Below, piece after piece: positions 10,834-44,768 of a DNA stretch of 64,000 bases (positions are counted from its first letter, which is position 1; every line of letters starts with the position of its first letter). Source of the stretch: Vulcanimicrobiota bacterium (lineage in GTDB: Bacteria; Vulcanimicrobiota; Vulcanimicrobiia; Eremiobacterales; Eremiobacteraceae); the NCBI GenBank assembly GCA_963812135.1, contig CAWETU010000005.1:302469-366468 (forward strand), in the 5' to 3' direction. The translations under genes and the position numbers were made by a program. Under the pieces are notes generated by a model. The model saw only the letters and a list, made by a program, of their open reading frames with translations, did no database searches and had not been told where the DNA came from.

Positions 10834-11566
10834 ATGAGCAGCGCATCTGAGACCATCGCGCCGGCGCCGGCGGAACGGGTTAGTGGTCTCGCGACATACC
10901 TCAAAGTCCTCTACGCGCCAGGCGAGGCGTTCGCAACGCTCTCCCGCGTGCCGACGTGGGGTTGGGCGGCGGTCGCCGGCATCATCCTGACGCTGATCGG
11001 CGCGTTGATCCTCGACTGCCCGCCACGAGTCACTACCAGACCAGTAGCCAAGAACAGCAATTCTCGCAGATGCCCGCAGATCAGGCGGCCGCTGCGCGCG
11101 AGTTCATGGCGAAGTATCCATGGGTCAACTCGATCGGCCCACTGGTCGGCGCCTTCATCGCTCCTTGGATGATTTGGGTCATCGGCGCGATCGTTTACTT
11201 GATCGCAGCGGCGCTCGGAGGCGGGGAAGCCCGCTTCAAAGCGGCATGGGTTACTGCGGTCAATGCGTATGTCATTCCGGCGCTTGGCAGCATCGTAGGC
11301 GCGGTCATCGTCTCGCTGCGCGGCCCTGCCAACGCCAACTCGATGGCGGATCTGTACGCGCTTCCTTCGTTGAGCATGCTCGTGCACGGCTCTCCCAAGG
11401 TAACCATGTTCCTCTATTCATTCAACATCGTCAACATCTGGTGCTACATCGTTCTCGTCATCGCGCTCCAGCGCATGCTCAAGATGTCCGCGACCGCTGC
11501 GATCGTCAGCCGTCGTCATCGTGGCGCTCATCGGCGGCGGGGCTGCTGGCTCTCGTCGCGAAATGA
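10834..11566 (+). CDS. Yip1-domain membrane protein (YknW-like), frameshifted in this assembly
   Basis: VLYAPGEAFATL...WGW continues after a shift near 11015 into several TM helices (FLYSFNIVNIW); further shift(s) near 11510-11540; strong SD GGAGG. Confidence 0.7.
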
Positions 11567-26976: not shown

Positions 26977-29296
26977 ATGGCGATCGCCCATAATTTAGGT
27001 TTTCCTCGCATCGGCCACAAACGCGAGCTCAAAAAGGCGCTCGAGGGATATTGGTCTGGGCAGTCCGACGAGACGGCGCTGCTCGAAACCGCTTGGCTGG
27101 TGCGCAAGCGCGATTGGGAGCTCCAGAAAAAGGCCGGCCTCGACCTGATACCGACCGGTGATTTTTCCCTATACGACCACATGCTGGACACGGCCGTGAT
27201 GCTCGGCGCTGTGCCGGAGCGCTACGGGCGGCGTGGCGGCAACGTCGACCTGAAGACGTACTTCGCGATGGCGCGCGGCGATGATGCGCACCCGGCGATG
27301 GAAATGACCAAGTGGTTTGACACCAACTACCACTACATCGTGCCGGAATTCACGCCGCAGACGCGCTTCGCGCTCTCGAGCACGAAGCTCATCGACGAGA
27401 CCAAGGAAGCAGTCGGATTGGGCATTCCGGCCAAGCCGGTGATCGTCGGCCCATACACGTTTTGGCGTTTGGGCAAATGGCGGCCGGAGAACGGTCGAAT
27501 AAATTCGACCGCTACGGGGGCGGCTGCGCATCTCGCGCCGCTCGAGCTGATCGAGCGCATGATCCCGGTCTATGCCGAGCTGCTCGCGCGGTTTGAAGCG
27601 ACTCGGGATCCAGTGGGTCCAAATCGACGAACCGGCGCTGGTGCTCGACCACAAGCCGGAATGGATCACCGCGCTGGAGCACGCCTACGCCACATTGGTG
27701 GCCGAAGGCGCTCCCAACATCATGCTGACGACATATTTCGGCGGGGTAAACGATATCGCGGCGCAGCTCAAGGAGCTGCCGGTGGCCGGCCTACACCTCG
27801 ATCTCGTGCGCGCACCTGAACAACTGGACGCGTTCGCGCGCTCGTATCCAAAGGATAAGGCGCTGTCGCTCGGCGTCATCGACGGACGCAACGTGTGGCG
27901 CGCCGATCTCGATGCGGCGCTTAAGACCATCGAACCCTTCGAGCCGATTGGCGACCGGTTGTGGATCGCGCCGTCGTGCAGCCTGCTGCACAGCCCGATC
28001 GATCTCGAGCAAGAGACCAAGCTCGATCCCGAGCTGCGATCGTGGATGTCGTTCGCCGTCCAGAAACTCGATGAGGTCGTCGCTCTCCAGAAGGCGCTCG
28101 GACCGCAAGCCGTTTCCGTGCAGCCCTTGATCGTGCAGGCCCGGGCAGCACAGCTGAGCCGGCGGACGTCGGTGCGCATCCACGACCCGGCGGTCGAACG
28201 ACGTGAAGCGGCTCTGCAAGACAGCGACGCCCGCCGCTCCGCGCCGTTCGCCGAACGCAGCGGGCAGCAACGGGCGCGATTGGGGCTCCCGCCGTTCCCG
28301 ACGACCACCATCGGCAGCTTCCCGCAGACGAGCTCGATCCGCGAGGCGCGCGCGAAGTTCAAGAAAGGCGACATCGACGCCGCCGAGTACGAGCGCCGCA
28401 TCAAAACGGAGATCGAGCATGCGGTCCGCGAGCAAGAGAAGATCGGCCTGGACGTCTTAGTCCACGGCGAAGCCGAGCGCAACGACATGGTCGAGTATTT
28501 CGGGGAGCAGCTGCGCGGCTTCGCGTTCACGCAGAACGGTTGGGTGCAGAGCTACGGATCGCGCTGCGTCAAGCCGCCCATCATCTTCGGAGATGTGTCG
28601 CGTCCGACGCCGATGACGGTGGATTGGATCACGTACGCACAATCGTTGACTTCCAGACCGATGAAAGGCATGTTGACCGGCCCGGTGACGATTCTGCAGT
28701 GGTCGTTCGTGCGCGACGACCAGCCGCGCTCGGACACGGCGTTGCAGATCGCGCTCGCCATCCGCGACGAGGTCGTCGACCTCGAGCGCGCCGGCGTCAA
28801 GATCATTCAGATCGACGAGCCGGCCATCCGCGAGGGGCTGCCGCTCAAGCGCGCGCAATGGGGCGACTACCTCAAATGGGCGGTGAAAGCGTTCCGCGTC
28901 GCGTCTTCAGGCGTGCGCCCCGAGACCCAGATCCACACCCACATGTGCTACTCCGAGTTCAACGACATCATCGAGTCGATCGCCGCGATGGACGCCGACG
29001 TGATCACGATCGAGTCCTCGCGTTCGGACATGGAGATTCTCGAAGCCTTCGCGAGCTTCAAGTATCCGAACGAGATCGGCCCGGGCGTGTATGATATCCA
29101 TTCGCCGCGCGTGCCGAGCGAGGACGAGATGACCGCGTTGCTCGAGAAAGCGGCGACGGTCGTGCCCCCCGATCAGCTCTGGGTCAACCCGGACTGCGGA
29201 CTCAAGACGCGTCGCTGGGAAGAGGTCGTGCCTGCGCTCACCCACATGGTGGCGGCCGCACGGCGGCTGCGCTTAAAAGTGGCGGCGAAAGTCTAA
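26977..29296 (+). CDS. metE: cobalamin-independent methionine synthase (one frameshift near 27600)
   Basis: [54 protein letters not shown]; split over two frames. Confidence 0.93.
27492..27515 (-). repeat. REP family 1 copy in frame inside metE
   Basis: cggtcgaataaattcgaccgctac, translated as GRINSTAT. Confidence 0.9.
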
Positions 29297-29339
29297 GGTC
29301 GCGAATGATCAGATGCCGACCGGAGCGCATCGGTTGGGC

Positions 29340-29606
29340 CTAAGCGTGTGCCAACAAGTGGGGGGCGAGGTGTACTCCACTCAGATCGAGACCCCGAGTT
29401 TCCGCGATCTTCAAGAAGACCGCGAAATCCTCAACGTCTCCCGATAGCAGCTCTACGCCCACGACCTTCCCGTCGCCATCGACGTCTATATTGACGTTAC
29501 CCGCCGCAAAGGCTTCAGTCGTCGCCACAGGCGAATCCGAAAATAGGAAATACATGGGATCGCCAACGACACCGTTCCACTCGATTGCCTTAAGCGTCTG
29601 TTTCAT
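29340..29606 (-). CDS. DUF2283-like protein (putative antitoxin)
   Basis: DPMYFLFSDSPVATT...VNIDVDGDGKVVGVELL; overlaps the upstream DUF4258-like gene. Confidence 0.75.
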   Translation of the reverse strand: MKQTLKAIEWNGVVGDPMYFLFSDSPVATTEAFAAGNVNIDVDGDGKVVGVELLSGDVEDFAVFLKIAETRGLDLSGVHLAPHLLAHA

Positions 29607-29832
29607 GGGTAACCTCATTTGCGGTAACCGTCCGCACGAAGTAAATATCCATTGGCTTGTGCCAGAACGTAACCCGTATCCTGCGTGATCCAATAATCTT
29701 GTACCTATTGCGACAGCCTTCCCGACCTGGAAGTTCAACCTCTGGAGAGCTCAGGGTTGCTAGAACTTCAGCGTGCGACACGTCGCGCTGACGCATGCGC
29801 TTTCGAGCGTGCGAGTGATATGTAACTTCCAT
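29590..29832 (-). CDS. DUF4258-like protein (putative RelE-fold toxin)
   Basis: HSHARKRMRQRDVSHAEVLATL...RIRVTF...VRTV; 80 aa; visibly lower GC. Confidence 0.78.
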   Translation of the reverse strand: MEVTYHSHARKRMRQRDVSHAEVLATLSSPEVELPGREGCRNRYKIIGSRRIRVTFWHKPMDIYFVRTVTANEVTHETDA

Positions 29833-29895
29833 GCGAGGAAATAGTATGTCTCGGATGTGTGCTGATGTTTTTCAGATTGCAGACGTCTTGCGATG

Positions 29896-29976
29896 CTAGC
29901 GGGCTCGGTCAATCCCGTCTAACGATGACGGGTTTTCGAGCGCCAAAAGGTCGCCCAAGTTCTCCGTCTGCAGATA
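29896..29976 (-). pseudogene. diverged duplicate of the acyl-CoA synthetase 3' end
   Basis: YLQTENLGDLLALENPSSLDGIDRAR* versus YLKMENLGDLSALENPSSLEAIDAAR* at 30688-30768 (20 of 26 aa identical). Confidence 0.9.
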
Positions 29977-29995
29977 GTCGCCGCCGACATGCTTC

Positions 29996-30088
29996 GAGAA
30001 GGCTGCGACGGTCGTGCCGGCCGTCGATGTAGTCGCCGCGGCGAAGCGCATGCGCGCGAAGGTCGCGGTCAGCGCTCAGATGGCTTGA
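29996..30088 (+). pseudogene. diverged, internally deleted duplicate of the metE 3' end
   Basis: [30 protein letters not shown] versus metE EKAATVVP[22 aa][20 protein letters not shown]. Confidence 0.82.
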
Positions 30089-30135
30089 ATTTGCCTTGTC
30101 AGACGCTATGTCACTGGTGATATACTACATGTGCG

Positions 30136-30663
30136 ATGGCTGAAATCGTTGTGCCTCAGTCCAAACCGGCAACCGAATGGATCCGTGGCCGCGCCGTCCA
30201 GAAAGTGAGCCCCCAGCGCGAGCATGCTCTTGCGCAAGGCGTCTTCTTCAGCGAATTGCATCGGTGGGCGAAGCGATTCAGGTCGGGTCGCGTCGGCACG
30301 GAGTGGGAATTCCGGCTAGCACCGCCCGGCGCTGTGCGGCGGCCACTCGTCCCCGATGTCGCCTACTTAGCGTACTCGCGCATCCCGCGCGAGTCGCCGG
30401 GCGAGGCCGACATCCCCCGAGTCGCTCCCACCGCCGTCGTGGAAGTGCTCTCTCCTGATGACACAAGGTCCGACGTTGAGGAAAAGGTGCGAGTCTATCT
30501 CGCTGCGGGGAGCGAAGTCGTATTTCTTGTCGAGACGAAACTGAAAACCGTTACCGCGCGCCACCGCGGTGGTGAGCGTGCATTCAATGAGACTGATGAA
30601 GTCAGCGATCCGGCGTTGCCCGGATTTGTCATGCCGGCGGCGGCGTTGTTCCAGGAACCCTAG
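30136..30663 (+). CDS. Uma2 (DUF820) family putative endonuclease
   Basis: EWIRGRAVQKVSP..EH, LVPDVAY, PTAVVEVLSPDD, KVRVYLAAG, LPGF; TGnTATACT at 30118-30126 just upstream. Confidence 0.88.
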   Translation: MAEIVVPQSKPATEWIRGRAVQKVSPQREHALAQGVFFSELHRWAKRFRSGRVGTEWEFRLAPPGAVRRPLVPDVAYLAYSRIPRESPGEADIPRVAPTAVVEVLSPDDTRSDVEEKVRVYLAAGSEVVFLVETKLKTVTARHRGGERAFNETDEVSDPALPGFVMPAAALFQEP

Positions 30664-30687
30664 TCACGCCTGCTGCTACCGCGTTAG

Positions 30688-32624
30688 CTAGCGGGCGGCG
30701 TCGATTGCCTCGAGCGAGGACGGGTTTTCGAGCGCCGAGAGGTCGCCAAGATTCTCCATCTTCAGATAGCGGGCGCGCGCGACGCGGCGCATCATCTTGC
30801 CGTTGCGCGTGTGGGGCAGGTCGTCGACGAACTTCACGGCTTTCGGCGCGAGCGCTTTGCCAAGATCTGTGATGACCTTGCCGTTCAGTTCGGCGCGCAG
30901 CGTTTCGTTTGCCTGCGACGCCGTTGCGCAAGACCACGAGGCACACTACCGTCTCGCCCTTCATCTCGTCCGGCACGGAGACGGCCGCGACTTCGCGCAC
31001 GCCCGGATGTGCCACGATCGCGCTTTCGTACTCAGCAGGCCCCACGCGCTTGCCGGCCACGTTGATCGTATCGTCGGAACGTCCGTGGATATACCAATAG
31101 CCCGCATCGTCGATGCTCGCCCAGTCGCCGTGCACCCACATATCGGGGAAGCGCGACCAATAGGTCTTGAGATACCGCTCCTCGTCGTGCCAGAAGCCCT
31201 GCGTCATGCCGGGCCATGGTTGACGGATGACCAGTTCGCCGACTTGGCCGCGCACGGATTGGCCGCCTCATCGACGACGTCGACATCCATGCCGAACACG
31301 GGGCCATGGAACGCGCACGGCACAAGCTCGCGCACCGGATAGCAACCGAGGATGCCGCCGCTGATCTCCGTGCCGCCCGAATAGTTGATGATGGGGACGC
31401 GGTCGCCGCCGACGTGTTTCGAAAACCACCGATACGGATCGGGATTCCACGCCTCGCCAGACGAGCCCAAGATGCGGAGGCTTGAAAGATCGTGCTTGTG
31501 CGGCCACTCGTCGCCGTGCGCCATCAGCGAACGGATGGCGGTGGGCGCGATGCCCAAGTGCGTCACGCGGTGGCGCGCCACCACTTCCCACAGGCGGTCC
31601 GGCCCTGGATAATCGGGCGTGCCTTCGAACAACACGCAGCTCGCGCCGAGGCCGAGCGCGCCGAGCACCAGGAACGGGCCCATCATCCAACCCATGTCGG
31701 AAAACCACAGCATGCGATCGCCCGGCTTGACGTCAAAGCAAAGGTGCTGGTCGATCTGCACTTTCACGGGAAAGCCGGCGTGTCCGTGAACGGCGCCTTT
31801 GGGTTGCCCGTCGAGCCCGACGTGTACAGCAGCAGATACGGCTCGTCCGAAGCGGTGCGCTCGGCGGCGAGGAACGGCTCCTCGTGCGCGACCGCGCTGA
31901 ACCAGTCGACGTCGCGACCCTCGACCCAGTCGATCTTCGCGTGGGTGCGCGCATAGACCAGCACGTGACGCACGCTGGGCACCTGCTCGAGCGCCGCGTC
32001 GGCCACCGCCTTCATGTCGACGGGCTTGCCACGACGAAACACGCCGTCGGCGGTGAGCAAGACTTTCGCTCCCGCATCCGCTAAGCGCGTCGCGAGCGCG
32101 GGCGCACCGTAGCCGGAAAACGCAGGTACGGCGATGGCGCCGATCCGGCCGATCGCCAACAGCGCGACCGCCGTCTCGGGCAGCATCGGCATGAAGATCC
32201 CGACCGTGTCGCCGCGTTGCACCCCCATGCGGCGCAACGCACCGGCGAGCCGGCACACGTCGGCAAGCAGCTCGTCGAATGTCAGACGGCGCACCGCGCC
32301 ATCCTCGCCTTCCCAGATGAGGGCGACATCGGCACCGCGGCCCGCCTGCACCCAACGATCGAGGCAGTTGAACGACGCGTTGTAGCGTCCGTCCACGAAC
32401 CAGCGCGCGAACGGCAGCCCGCGCGAGAGATCGAGCGTCTGCGTGTACGGCTCGAACCAGCTCAGCCCGAGCTGCGAGACGAGCTCGTGATAGAAACGCG
32501 CGATGTCGGCGCGCGCGTACGCCCACAGCTCCTCGAGCGTGGCGCAACCCACACGCTTCATGAAGCGCGTGAGGTTGGCGTCGTTCACGTATTGGGGAGT
32601 GGGGCGCCAGACGACGTCGTTCAC
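30688..32624 (-). CDS. acetyl-/acyl-CoA synthetase (AMP-binding), about 3 frameshifts (near 31800, 31257, 30910)
   Basis: ALIWEGEDG, YTSGSTG, DMGWMMGP, NYSGGTEI, WVHGDWA, GRSDDTINVAGKR, LPHTRNGKMMRR spread over four consecutive frame segments. Confidence 0.88.
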
Positions 32625-41052: not shown

Positions 41053-44000
41053 TTACATCTTGAACTGGACGTTGAACGAGGCGCTGAAGGGAGTCGTGAA
41101 GCCTTCAAGGCCGTTCGTCGACGAGTATCCGAAGTACGGGTATTTGACGTTCGCCGAGATCGGCGTACCCGGATTGTAGAAGTTACCCACTGGCGGGTAG
41201 TTGCCGGCTATGACACCGTACCCGCAAATGTGGTTGTCGTTCGTGGTCCACGGCTCTTTCGAACCGCCGAAGCACGTGTTGACGATGTTCGCCAGATTCA
41301 GCTGATAAGTCACGCGCGGCGTGGCTTCATAGCCGATCTGCATGTGGGCTTGGAACTGGCTCGGCTCGATGAACGCGCCGATGTTGTCGAACTTGCCCGT
41401 GTATGTATCGGGAATCACGAGCGAGCCAGTGCACGACGTCGCGTCGGCAGCCAAGCCGGTTCCACCGTTGGGATAGCGCGGGTCGCCTGCGGCCAACGGC
41501 CCCAGTGCCGCGCAGGTGCTCGGATCGAACCCGTAGTTCACCTCAGGCGAGCCATACGGCGCACCTGTGTGGAACTGGAACGACGGGACGAACGACCACT
41601 TGTCGTGCTTGAATTGTAAGATCAGCGCTGCGAAGTTCGGTATGACATAGCCCTGAGACGAGAGCTGGACTCCCGCCGGGACGATGTCGTACGGCGTATA
41701 CGACCCATTCGTATCGAACAGGTTCTGTATCGGCATGTTGAAGTACGGATTCGCCACACCACTGATCTCCGTCGCGACCGCATTGACATTGCCATACGGT
41801 CCGCACGGACTCGTGGGGCTATTGTTGGGCGTCGCCGTGGCGCATGCCGACGTGAACGAGTTGAACTTCTGGATATCAGCGTTGTCCGAACTCAGCACGG
41901 TGAGCCCGTTCGTCAGGGCCTTGTACTTGATCCGGCTGTAGGTGTAGGTGTACGAGAGCTGACCTGACCAGCCGTTGTTGTTGAAGTTGCCCATGCTCAG
42001 CAGGAACTCGACGCCAGTATTCGTCTCCTGGCCGGCGTTGACGCCGGACACGAACGCGGTCTTGGGGTCGATGAAGAACTGCTGCACCTGGTCAGACGTC
42101 TGCCGCAGGAACGGCGTCAACTTGAACGACGTCTGCGTGCCGTTGAAATGGTGCTCCAACGACAGGTCGTAGTTGTACGAGATCGAGGGATTCTCGACGT
42201 GGGCCGGCGTCGTGAAGCCGAACTTGTAGAACAGCGGACCCATCAGCACGTTGGGCAGGTTTTGCTCCAACGTGTTGTACTGCTCGAACGCCGCGTTGGC
42301 GGGCTGCGAGTAGCGGCCTGCCGAGAAGCGGATCACGTCGTCGACACCCATGGTGTAGGTGCCGCCGATGCGCGGTTCGAGCTCGTTGAAGGTCACCTGA
42401 CCGCCGTTCGCGGTCGAGTTGGTCAGCGTCGCTTGCGTGAACGAGCCGGCCGCGAAGCCCGGCGCCGATACGTTGGCGCATGGCTGGCCGGCCTGTTGCG
42501 TGGATGCTGCCGAGCGTGCTGGTCGTCATGTCAAACGGCGTGCCGCCGTTGAACAGCGGATTCACGCAATGCGCCTGGTTCCATGCGTTGAACCAGAAGT
42601 CACGCGTGCCGCCGCCCGTCGGCGTGTAGATGAACCCGTAGACGTCGTCGCGGATGCCGATGTTGAGGTTGAGCCGATCATTCGGCTTCCACGTGTCCTG
42701 CAACGAGGCTGCCCAGAATCGCGGCGTCACCGTGTTGAACGTCGCCCACGGGCCGTTCTCGGCCATGAGCCACGCGCACGGATCGGTGCCTGTCGATCCG
42801 CAGGTCGCGCCGGGGCTTGTGATTCCACCGGTCTGGATCTGTTGCCGAAGGTGAGGATGCTCGGGCGAGCGGCGGCTCCGTTGCTGGGCTCGCACGACTT
42901 CAGCCACGCCAGGGGCACCCATGTTGTAGCACAGACCGTTCGTCGGAGCGTTGGCGTCGACGAGGAACGCCGCGCGCGCGTGTCGTCGCAACCAAGCGCG
43001 GCGCCGCGGGCCTGGAACATCTGCGTGTTGTTGTCACGCACCGTGCTGGCGGTCGAGTACGAACCCTCGACGTTGAGCAAGTGCTTGGGCGAGAGCTGGT
43101 TGACGTATTGCGCGGATGCGCCGCGCGTGTGCGTCCACAGCTCGTAGTCCGACGGGCAGCACGCGACGAAGTTCGCCTGCGATGAGTTCGGGCCGTACAG
43201 ATACCAGCTCGAGTAGAAGATGTATCCGTACAGTCGCAGGTACGACGACGTGCCGATGTTGTGCTGCCATTGCAGCTTGTAGATGTTGTTCGAATTGGTC
43301 GACGTGTCTTCTTGGTTCAGCGGAATCGGGCCACCGAGCCCGATCGGGCCGGCACTCGGATACGCGTAGTTCGCGACGTTTCCGGCTTGCGTCGGGTCCG
43401 CTGCCGTGAAGACCTGACCCAGCGCGCCTGCGTGTACTGCCGAGCCGAGGTCAGGAACGTGTTACCAACGCAGCCATCCCGCAGCGCGACGCGTTGCGGC
43501 ATCGATTGCGTAGAACGACGGGCCGCCCCAGTCGTTTTGCGAGCTATACGCGAACGAGTACAGCTGGAAGACATCGTACAGGAACTGGATGTCGTCCTTG
43601 CCGGTGTCGTTCTTGTGCGGGATGCCGAAGTGGAAGTTGAACACGTTCTCGCGATCTTCGATGCGTGAGAACGCGCCCATCTGGAACGGGCCCATAAGAT
43701 AGCCGGCCCGGGCCCGCCTGCCGTGCCGGTCAGCGGGTTCGGCGGCGTTCGGCATAGCAGGAGCGAGTAGCCGTTAGTGGGCGATCGCGCATGCCCCGCC
43801 GGCGCGGTTAGGATGTCGAACGCCGAGCCGTAGGTCTGCGCGACGCTCGCGCCGTTGCTGTTGTCGATGTAGCGCGGGTCTTGGTTGACCAACCCGACGC
43901 CGACGTAGTATGAGAAGTTGCGGTTGGGCGTCGCCCCGCCGAACTCGATGTTGGCCTTGTTGTACAGAGCCGGTCCGCCGATGCCGAGATTGATCGTGCC

Positions 44001-44768
44001 GAATCCCGGATAGGTGCCGCTCTTGATGACCTGGTTGATGTAGCCCGCAAGGCCTTGCGATTCAGCCGAGGCAGGCGCTGCGCCGGTGTACAGCTGCAGC
44101 TCTTGCTGGCCGAGCGCCGAGAGATTCGTGGTCGGGTAGTTGTCGAACGACCGGTTCACCGGTACGCCGTCGAACTCGTAGCCGACCTGATCGTAGTCAC
44201 CACCGCGGATGTATACGTCTTGGAACCAACCGGCTTGTCCGGGTGGGACGTATGCACCGGGCAACGCCGCGATCGCGGAGTAGCCCTGGTTCGCGCCGCC
44301 GCCGCCACCGAGGACGGCCGAGCGCGCCTGCGCGCTCTCGTTGACCGAGTAGACGTTGGCCGTCGTACCGGGCTTCACGAGATCGGTTGACGCACGCGTC
44401 AGCACGGTTCCGATGGTTTTCACCGGCGGATTCGCGATCAGCGCGACGTTTTGCACTTGGTCCGCCAGCACGGTGACGCCGCGCTGCGACACGGGCTCGA
44501 TGACGTTTTCTTTGGAAGCCGTCACCGTGTACGTGTCAGGGACCAAGGAGACAAACCCGAAATGACCACCATTGTCGGTCGTTGTGCTTGAGGTCTGACT
44601 GGCGGACGTCGCAGTCACCTTCGCTTGCGCGACGGGGGCGTGCGTGGTCGCCAACTCAACAGTGCCATTCAACGATCCGGTGACGCCTGCCAGTGCCCAT
44701 GTTCCCTGGACCAGCAACACCGCGACCGCTAAGAAGGCAATTCTCAGCAAACCTTTCATGGTTTTCAA
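41053..44768 (-). CDS. TonB-dependent receptor-like outer membrane protein with N-terminal carboxypeptidase-regulatory-like domain; many frameshifts at about 42400-43800
   Basis: Signal peptide, TTTDNGGHFGFVSLVPDTYTVT, YIRGG..GYEFDGVPVN plug, LQDTWKPNDRLNLNIGIR, EPRIGGTY, C-terminal FNVQFKM. Confidence 0.8.

Follow-up and report, generated by a model that had tools for sequence, protein, structure and literature searches.

Back-to-back relics of metE and acs gene ends between two cargo modules of an intergenic hotspot in a Vulcanimicrobiota bacterium

The window analyzed here is a 64,000-nucleotide stretch of DNA from a Vulcanimicrobiota bacterium (GenBank assembly GCA_963812135.1, source genome G000) and makes up the final 64 kb of its contig C5 (CAWETU010000005.1). 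In this window metE and an acs-like gene are convergent, and the gap of 1,391 bp between them holds two cargo modules, a presumed toxin-antitoxin (TA) pair of a DUF4258 and a DUF2283 gene and a gene for a Uma2-family nuclease. The two modules are separated by diverged, back-to-back copies of the 3' ends of metE and acs. How did the ends of two housekeeping genes come to lie inside the gap between them? The arrangement probably arose through a single illegitimate joint that linked two alleles of one integrase-free hotspot head to tail, and the product was then trimmed.

Anatomy and source of the relic block

A BLAST search of positions 29840-30135 against the window gave three matches apart from the self-match, in register and far beyond chance. 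The relic block of 194 bp (29895-30088) separates the TA pair from the Uma2 gene and consists of four pieces, whose coordinates are collected in Table 1 together with those of the surrounding genes. The copy of the acs 3' end was found with an E value of 3.8e-14 against the whole 2.79-Mb genome, and its peptide matches the adjacent acs only. It keeps the reading frame and the stop codon, with 20 of 26 residues identical to the working acs, as the first-pass annotation had stated. What had been described there as a 19-nt spacer is, together with its flanks, a second piece of acs taken from the interior of the gene. All eight of its residues are identical to the working protein, and it is in frame with the acs tail relic. 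About 632 nt of acs are absent between the interior and the tail relic, and no clear microhomology was seen for this loss.

The two metE pieces are joined at a single copy of the 9-nt repeat GGTCGTGCC (30010-30018). Working metE holds two copies of this repeat (29158-29166 and 29224-29232), and the 22 codons already reported as missing between two VVP repeats are exactly the 66 nt between these copies. As the relic holds only one copy, these 66 nt were lost. The original stop codon is read through in the metE relic, which ends at a TGA (30086-30088). Where the acs interior piece and the first metE piece meet, they overlap by a short microhomology of 7 nt between sequences otherwise without homology.

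The order across the gap is metE end, cargo, acs end, and then again metE end, cargo, acs end, with one novel junction; the earlier description of a unit repeated head to tail with different cargo was correct. The two units are unlike, since their cargo is unrelated (TA pair versus Uma2) and their tails are 79% (acs) and 58% (metE) identical. The inner acs end and the inner metE end appear to be dead relics without function. An open reading frame (ORF) of 51 codons spans the block on the minus strand (29896-30051), running antisense through the metE relic and then in the acs relic frame to the stop; this ORF is probably accidental. Retention of the relics as promoters is not supported by a scan of 29250-30750, which gave no promoter-like sites and three terminator-like sites against 1.4 expected.

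Table 1. Features of the metE-acs interval of G000, in window coordinates
Feature	Position	Strand	Evidence
metE, cobalamin-independent methionine synthase, left flank	26977-29296	+	Pfam Meth_synt_1 and Meth_synt_2 on two overlapping ORFs
DUF2283 gene, 88 aa, presumed antitoxin, module 1	29340-29606	-	Pfam PF10049, 31 bits (cut-off 23)
DUF4258 gene, 80 aa, presumed RelE/ParE-superfamily toxin, module 1	29590-29832	-	Pfam PF14076, 28.5 bits (cut-off 25)
acs 3' end relic, 26 codons and stop	29895-29977	-	66/83 nt to 30687-30769, E 1.4e-15 (window)
acs interior relic, FSKHVGGD	29977-30000	-	21/24 nt to 31402-31425, E 0.015 (window)
Novel joint, 7 nt (TCGAGAA) common to the acs interior and metE pieces	29994-30000		Overlap of BLAST matches
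metE relic piece, EKAATVVP	29994-30018	+	23/25 nt to 29142-29166, E 1e-4 (window), 0.003 (genome)
metE tail relic	30010-30088	+	82% over 71 nt to working metE tail of G004, E 4e-12
Uma2-family PD-(D/E)XK nuclease gene, 175 aa, module 2	30136-30663	+	Pfam PF05685, 72.9 bits (cut-off 27)
acs-like acyl-CoA synthetase gene, right flank	30688-32624	-	Pfam ACAS_N, AMP-binding and AMP-binding_C over four ORF pieces

Comparison with relatives identified the gene ends from which the two tails derive. G001 and G006, which carry the TA pair only, align collinearly with G000 in a single 79%-identical match that covers metE and the TA pair and reaches the acs stop. In both genomes the region ahead of the DUF4258 start directly adjoins the stop codon of the working acs, and the stop of the G000 relic lies at the matching position. 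The acs relic is therefore the gene end of a TA-type allele. Among 18 genomes, the metE tail relic gave its top local score with the working tail of G004, the only other genome in the genus with Uma2 in the orientation of G000. Its ungapped core matched G004 at 40/45 and the tail of G000 itself at 26/45 (Fisher p 0.0016). The first-pass annotation had proposed that the C-termini of both flanking genes were swapped; evidence of a swap was found for the metE tail and none such for the acs tail.

The distribution of differences over codon positions was informative. The acs relic differs from working acs at 4, 4 and 12 first, second and third positions (pN/pS 0.26, binomial p 0.013), and the metE tail relic differs from G004 at 0, 1 and 4. 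As the differences are mostly at third positions, the divergence therefore arose in working genes and not by decay of a duplicate made in place. Most of it would have accumulated in different alleles or lineages, while both copies were still parts of working genes.

Variation of the metE-acs slot among relatives

The slot was surveyed by DNA search of 40 relatives, plus 32 family genomes. metE and acs were convergent and adjacent on one contig in 17 of the 24 family genomes of the first search, and four further genomes and G000 bring the total to 22 slots. In six genomes of two other genera acs was found and metE was not, and in the unpublished genome G010 metE was found alone, near a contig end. 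Seven slots were empty, with gaps of 1-56 bp (G002, G005, G012, G013, G014, G016 and G021; G013 and G016 are unpublished genomes, on which two of the seven counts rest). The TA pair alone was present in G001 and G006 (606 and 560 bp), and Uma2 alone, in the opposite orientation, in four genomes of other genera (G043, G044, G046 and G047; 568-662 bp). Both modules were found in G000 and in G004 (1,180 bp), where DUF4258 is truncated and relics are absent. The other seven slots (278-3,828 bp) had different contents: an NHL/beta-propeller protein in G003, an unnamed 219-aa protein in G007 and G022, four genes (carotenoid-synthesis-like, cyclase, VIT1 and TPR) in G011, a RibD_C protein in G019, unnamed ORFs in G020, and 278 bp without a long ORF in G015. 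The G020 cargo was also considered as an IS200/RAYT-type gene, which was rejected because Pfam gave no hit.

From the varied content of these 22 slots it follows that the metE-acs gap is a family-wide integrase-free hotspot, with cargo beyond selfish cassettes. The two genes are normally adjacent with variable cargo. Empty (7/22) and TA-only (2/22) alleles occur as had been predicted; Uma2-only alleles (4/22) were also found, but in the opposite orientation and in other genera. The cassettes had been described as toxin-antitoxin or nuclease cassettes, a description that is too narrow for the unrelated gene types in the relatives' slots.

The flanks of the slot are syntenic housekeeping genes, and the wider neighborhood is of the same kind, with dnaK-grpE-dnaJ, a Lon-like protease, two acyl-CoA dehydrogenases, two S41 peptidases, an M23 peptidase and ftsEX. 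The earlier statement that no integrase, transposase or tRNA is nearby held within the range searched: integrase and transposase families were absent from the 12 + 11 = 23 proteins scanned between 19.7 and 40.9 kb, and no tRNA genes were found in the window.

The DUF4258 and DUF2283 genes are small, overlap by 17 nt at the DUF2283 start and are kept as a pair in G001 and G006; DUF2283 orthologues are located at the equivalent site in G001, G004 and G006. From their domains and arrangement they are presumed to form a type II toxin-antitoxin pair. DUF4258 is listed among the BECR-fold toxins of the RelE/ParE superfamily in a passage of PMC11980606, with the remark that "little is known". The literature search gave no paper naming both DUF4258 and DUF2283, and the family searches gave no DNA match to the TA part outside the genus. 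The Uma2 profile match covers residues 8-167 of 175, and the protein also matches the PADLOC defense candidate PDC-S03 (E 1e-9). NCBIfam had no family for any of the three cargo proteins. A metagenome scan with the slot Uma2 protein gave five loci, all at 51% identity or less and none informative on the slot. Passages of PMC2701414 and PMC1274311 treat Uma2/COG4636, whose function is unknown, as a likely solo toxin and a predicted PD-(D/E)XK endonuclease.

Trees of the neighboring S41 genes and of the metE and acs bodies grouped (G005,G006) and (G004,(G002,G003)), with G000 and G001 on separate deep branches. Cargo is discordant with the tree, as the TA-only G006 is sister to the empty G005. 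The slot Uma2 proteins group in a single clade whose branching follows the genera, (G043,G044), (G046,G047) and (G000,G004), with 65-74% identity between genomes and 87% between G046 and G047. G000 has seven other Uma2 hits, one of them fragmentary; the five full-length copies included in the tree fall apart from the slot clade, as do the relatives' non-slot copies. This topology fits a slot Uma2 that would be an old resident, with repeated loss and one inversion.

The slot Uma2 clade also bears on whether the relic pieces and Uma2 could form a site-specific integrative element of about 0.7 kb, inserted in the acs 3' end with a replacement end, so that the two acs-end copies would be attachment sites. 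In favor of such an element, Uma2 lies between direct repeats, the two acs-end copies, whose 83-nt match includes 18 nt that are identical in both, and Uma2 is found in the equivalent slot in three genera. However, this 18-nt core is a conserved, LENP-coding part of acs in all relatives, the inverted Uma2 genes of G043, G044, G046 and G047 are not accompanied by an acs-end repeat, and a tree that mirrors the genera points to descent with loss and not to hopping. Neither the unit nor the surrounding ~9 kb contains an integrase or recombinase, and there is no reason for an acs-targeting element to hold a metE end and a piece of acs interior. A site-specific element is therefore considered very unlikely.

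A different role for Uma2 was also considered, in which the slot alleles would be long-lived cassettes travelling between species in one linkage block with the last 15-25 codons of the flanking genes, and Uma2 would promote their homing-like exchange. Uma2 would then break Uma2-less or foreign alleles, and the relic block, with its overlaps of 7 and 9 nt, may be a scar of break repair by microhomology-mediated template switching. Three observations are compatible with such exchange and do not prove it: the slot Uma2 clade occurs in three genera and in both orientations, the relic metE tail matches the tail of the other Uma2-bearing genus member, and local repeats lie near two of the seven other Uma2 copies of G000, with a duplicated HicB-like gene next to the fragmentary one. 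On the whole, homing-like exchange by Uma2 seems improbable.

The local repeats lie within about 1 kb of the Uma2 copies at C5:164566-165084 and C1:2121654-2122181 (repeats at C5:165320-165572 and C1:2122300-2123685); the repeat on C5 is a 121-nt tandem repeat of 95% identity. The fragmentary Uma2 gene (C1:2305355-2305767) adjoins a duplicated, partly frameshifted HicB-like antitoxin gene in the region C1:2300480-2310184. In G046 (L065, ~1900-2030) and G047 (L066, ~1925-2050) duplicated hairpin-like units were observed between the inverted Uma2 and the acs stop, and the acs stop codon with about 5-8 following bases is repeated beside the hairpin copy. These repeats may be miniature stacked acs ends or terminator duplications.

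Origin of the stacked units

From the anatomy, the joint, the allele series in the relatives and the selective signature of the relics, we infer the following route and timing of recombination. Unit 1 comprises the outer metE end, the TA pair and the inner acs end, and unit 2 the inner metE end, Uma2 and the outer acs end. This order requires a single novel joint, located in the 7-nt microhomology, between the acs interior (codon ~405) and the metE 3' region (~50 codons before the stop). DNA from a relative with the other allele would have paired by homology on one side, and the other side would have closed illegitimately, as in homology-facilitated illegitimate recombination (HFIR). A fragment circularized at the joint and inserted through one crossover would give the same product. 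The relics would have been shortened in the same event or later, by 66 nt in metE (between the 9-nt direct repeats) and by about 632 nt in acs; the two internal losses could be later deletions or template switches of the joining event. Either the HFIR or the circle route needs one rare event and a donor with the other allele.

As to which unit arrived first, the slot Uma2 clade and the lack of a DNA match to the TA part outside the genus in the family searches point to an older Uma2 and to a TA unit that may have come in later with a new metE tail. However, the working metE of G000 has an 'RLR'-type tail common to G001, G005 and G006, and the relic tail is of the 'RMR' type common to G002-G004 and other genera. 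The tail types can be read in the reverse order, with the Uma2 unit imported from a G004-like lineage.

Several observations weigh against the joining of two alleles as described above. The two pieces that flank the joint resemble the genes of G000 itself more than those of any relative, with 23/25 matches for the metE piece and 21/24 for the acs interior; the next-best relatives have 25/30 and 19/24, respectively. Taken together, the joint-near pieces agree with the working genes at 44/49 positions, as compared to 90/126 for the tails (Fisher p 0.0097). Among the acs sequences of 21 relatives aligned (G022 has no sequence there), none contains FSKHVGGD, which is identical in the acs of G000 only. 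Such G000-like pieces fit a conspecific donor and, equally, a duplication made in place. The proposal of a 'foreign' allele is thus too strong, as divergence is confined to the tails; the other allele may have come from a close relative, or the segment may have been duplicated in place. Sliding windows of working metE and acs against six genus members were flat (~0.75-0.88) and gave no donor or breakpoint tract. The members of the genus are only ~75-81% identical to G000, and therefore no near relative is available to date or polarize the event. G004 has both modules without relics and is left unexplained by the model. Its DUF4258 lacks the 5' part, and between this truncated gene and Uma2 the place of the G000 relics is taken by ~190 nt of unplaced sequence (L034, 1425-1625), with no match in G000, G001, G002 or G006. 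The remaining two points, the coverage of the junction and the rarity of relics, are given below.

Duplication in place most simply explains the likeness of both joint-near pieces to G000, including the FSKHVGGD motif and the pooled difference between pieces and tails. Slipped or illegitimate exchange at the 7-nt microhomology would have duplicated in tandem a segment that extends from the 3' region of metE across the old cargo into acs, and a double homologous recombination with another allele would then have replaced the cargo and tails of one unit. The four-piece patchwork with its overlaps of 7 and 9 nt could also be one template-switching event. Two rare steps are nevertheless required, and identical cargo copies within a direct repeat of ~0.9 kb should collapse fast by homologous recombination. 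Furthermore, the margins in favor of G000 are small (21 versus 19 of 24; 23/25 versus 25/30). Duplication in place is accordingly regarded as possible, though doubtful.

Public runs containing parts of the metE-acs locus are labelled soil metagenome. Four runs, X1 to X4, were compared as short Logan contigs (~150-750 nt), and the best of them, X1, has 0.33 of the sampled words. Over 29878-30054 the depth was 0 in X1 and X2 and 0.64 in X3, and the interval was uncovered in X4 too. No read or independent contig spans this interval, so the junction rests on one assembly, which is a further point against the joining of two alleles. A long-read assembler could have threaded co-existing TA-only and Uma2-only strain alleles in succession. 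Such an artefact is suggested by the lack of any contig across the junction, by near-identical strain variants at the locus among the short-read contigs, and by the nature of the assembly, which is of metagenome type with six contigs (2.79 Mb, 64% G+C) and has homopolymer frameshifts in at least four genes of the window, metE and acs among them. A mis-threaded bubble would, however, repeat long and near-identical flanks. The inner copies measure only 83 + 24 and 25 + 79 nt, show 79% (acs tail) and 58% (metE tail) identity with the outer copies, are internally deleted, and meet at a microhomology within coding sequence and not at shared sequence. The chance that the junction is an assembly artefact is rated as slight.

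The frameshifts themselves are likely assembly indel errors. metE has one +1 frameshift near 27592, a single extra base at a short homopolymer when compared with four relatives, and acs has three (near 31804, 31256 and 30911), all single-base indels at short homopolymers. The intact acs protein of G005 matched the locus by tblastn in four frames with 81-90% identity, and at the frameshift positions the genes are intact in the 4-5 relatives compared. At least two other genes of the window are split relative to G005, one near 11014 and one with a 1,244-aa homologue at ~41056-44768. Homopolymer indels or splits in metE, acs and at least two further genes therefore make assembly errors the likely cause. 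One low-depth X1 contig runs over 27592 without a corrective deletion, and two strain-variant contigs of X1 have an additional base near 31803 and 31809.

Rarity of the pattern and comparison with known systems

Relics were searched with 60-aa tails of 18 genomes against 11 slot interiors and with 300-aa ends of 22 genomes against 15 interiors. They were detected in one of 15 non-empty slots, that of G000, and in none of the other 14, which also weighs against a joining of alleles. Hits in the interiors of G011 and G004 came solely from the frameshift-noisy translation of G044. In the G007 slot (L037, ~697-753, before the acs stop) the metE tails of G003 and G005 matched with 50-52% identity over 18-19 aa (E 0.028), and two further weak matches to metE interior were seen (E 0.003-0.004). 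The G007 matches may represent a decayed relic or chance.

Self-comparison of G000 in 12-kb windows (repeats of at least 50 nt and 50 bits) gave 114 local repeat pairs, mostly tandem paralogues. No second back-to-back relic of gene ends was found among the 18 short pairs inspected, four of them at the sequence level. The pattern was thus seen once in 22 slots and the one genome examined. An integrase-free general way to accumulate cassettes, as had been suggested, is not supported by one case in 15 filled slots and no second case in 18 of 114 repeat pairs. The stacked allele looks like a rare accident that was preserved, not a routine route of accumulation.

Two other repeats of G000 were recorded in the same comparison. 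A 106-nt direct repeat of 89% identity (C1:1336619-1336724 and C1:1337781-1337886) brackets a small insert and stems from a duplicated gene start; a second copy of the 5' end of a glycosyltransferase-like ORF lies ~1 kb upstream, fused to the end of the preceding ORF. A 70-nt direct repeat of 89% identity (C1:106206-106275 and C1:107100-107169) resembles the 3' part of a tRNA and flanks a 269-aa ORF, a signature usual for a putative site-specific island.

Integration of the prophage type brings a replacement 3' end for the target gene, as e14 does in icd of E. coli. The metE-acs locus is similar in that a diverged 3'-end duplicate lies beyond the inserted DNA and the gene is intact. It differs by having no integrase and by including the end of the opposite flanking gene as well.

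Among the closest known processes is HFIR, which, according to passages of PMC5361080 and PMC2884548, has been described in natural transformation of Acinetobacter, Pseudomonas stutzeri and Streptococcus pneumoniae; the latter paper also appeals to "illegitimate recombination assisted by homology" to explain dimorphic small segments. Common to HFIR and the metE-acs locus are closure at a microhomology on one side and gain of DNA without a recombinase gene, and a homology anchor in a conserved flank on the other side would be a further likeness. By contrast, the metE-acs case is known from a fossil only, the illegitimate end fell so as to duplicate resident sequence where it might have deleted it, and relics of both flanks are present. 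T6SS effector-immunity arrays follow the same logic in the relevant part of PMC5361080, which cites the orphan 3' regions of Rhs/CDI systems and names HFIR as a likely route. There too, a new module arriving with its own part of the conserved gene displaces the old 3' part, and a series of displaced ends is left behind. Those are polymorphic toxin loci, in which displacement, according to that part of the paper, keeps old immunity genes useful; in the metE-acs locus the displaced ends belong to housekeeping genes and lie back to back between unrelated cargos. A limited keyword search of the literature gave no description of back-to-back relics of two convergent housekeeping genes in a hotspot. 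The locus is a clean single example of a known process, illegitimate addition or displacement of an allele, and not a general mechanism.

Integrase-free hotspots of gene turnover between core genes are described in PMC5635113, and clean double homologous exchange is proposed in the sections concerned. These hotspots and the metE-acs gap are alike in having a variable interval between syntenic core genes, no mobility genes and many different cargos. Comparative genomics has brought to light many hotspots without mobility genes, and the usual explanation is a clean double crossover in the core genes on either side, of which nothing remains visible. The exchange described in PMC5635113 is scarless, whereas the metE-acs event was imprecise, stacked two alleles and left a scar, keeping as its trace a datable joint, the microhomologies and the displaced ends of metE and acs. 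It also indicates how a core enzyme such as metE can have its C-terminal tail exchanged along with the adjacent cargo. Back-to-back diverged ends of convergent genes within intergenic cargo provide a search image with which the part of illegitimate addition in hotspot growth can be gauged, and the metE-acs locus offers a natural example of hotspot alleles that were stacked, not swapped.

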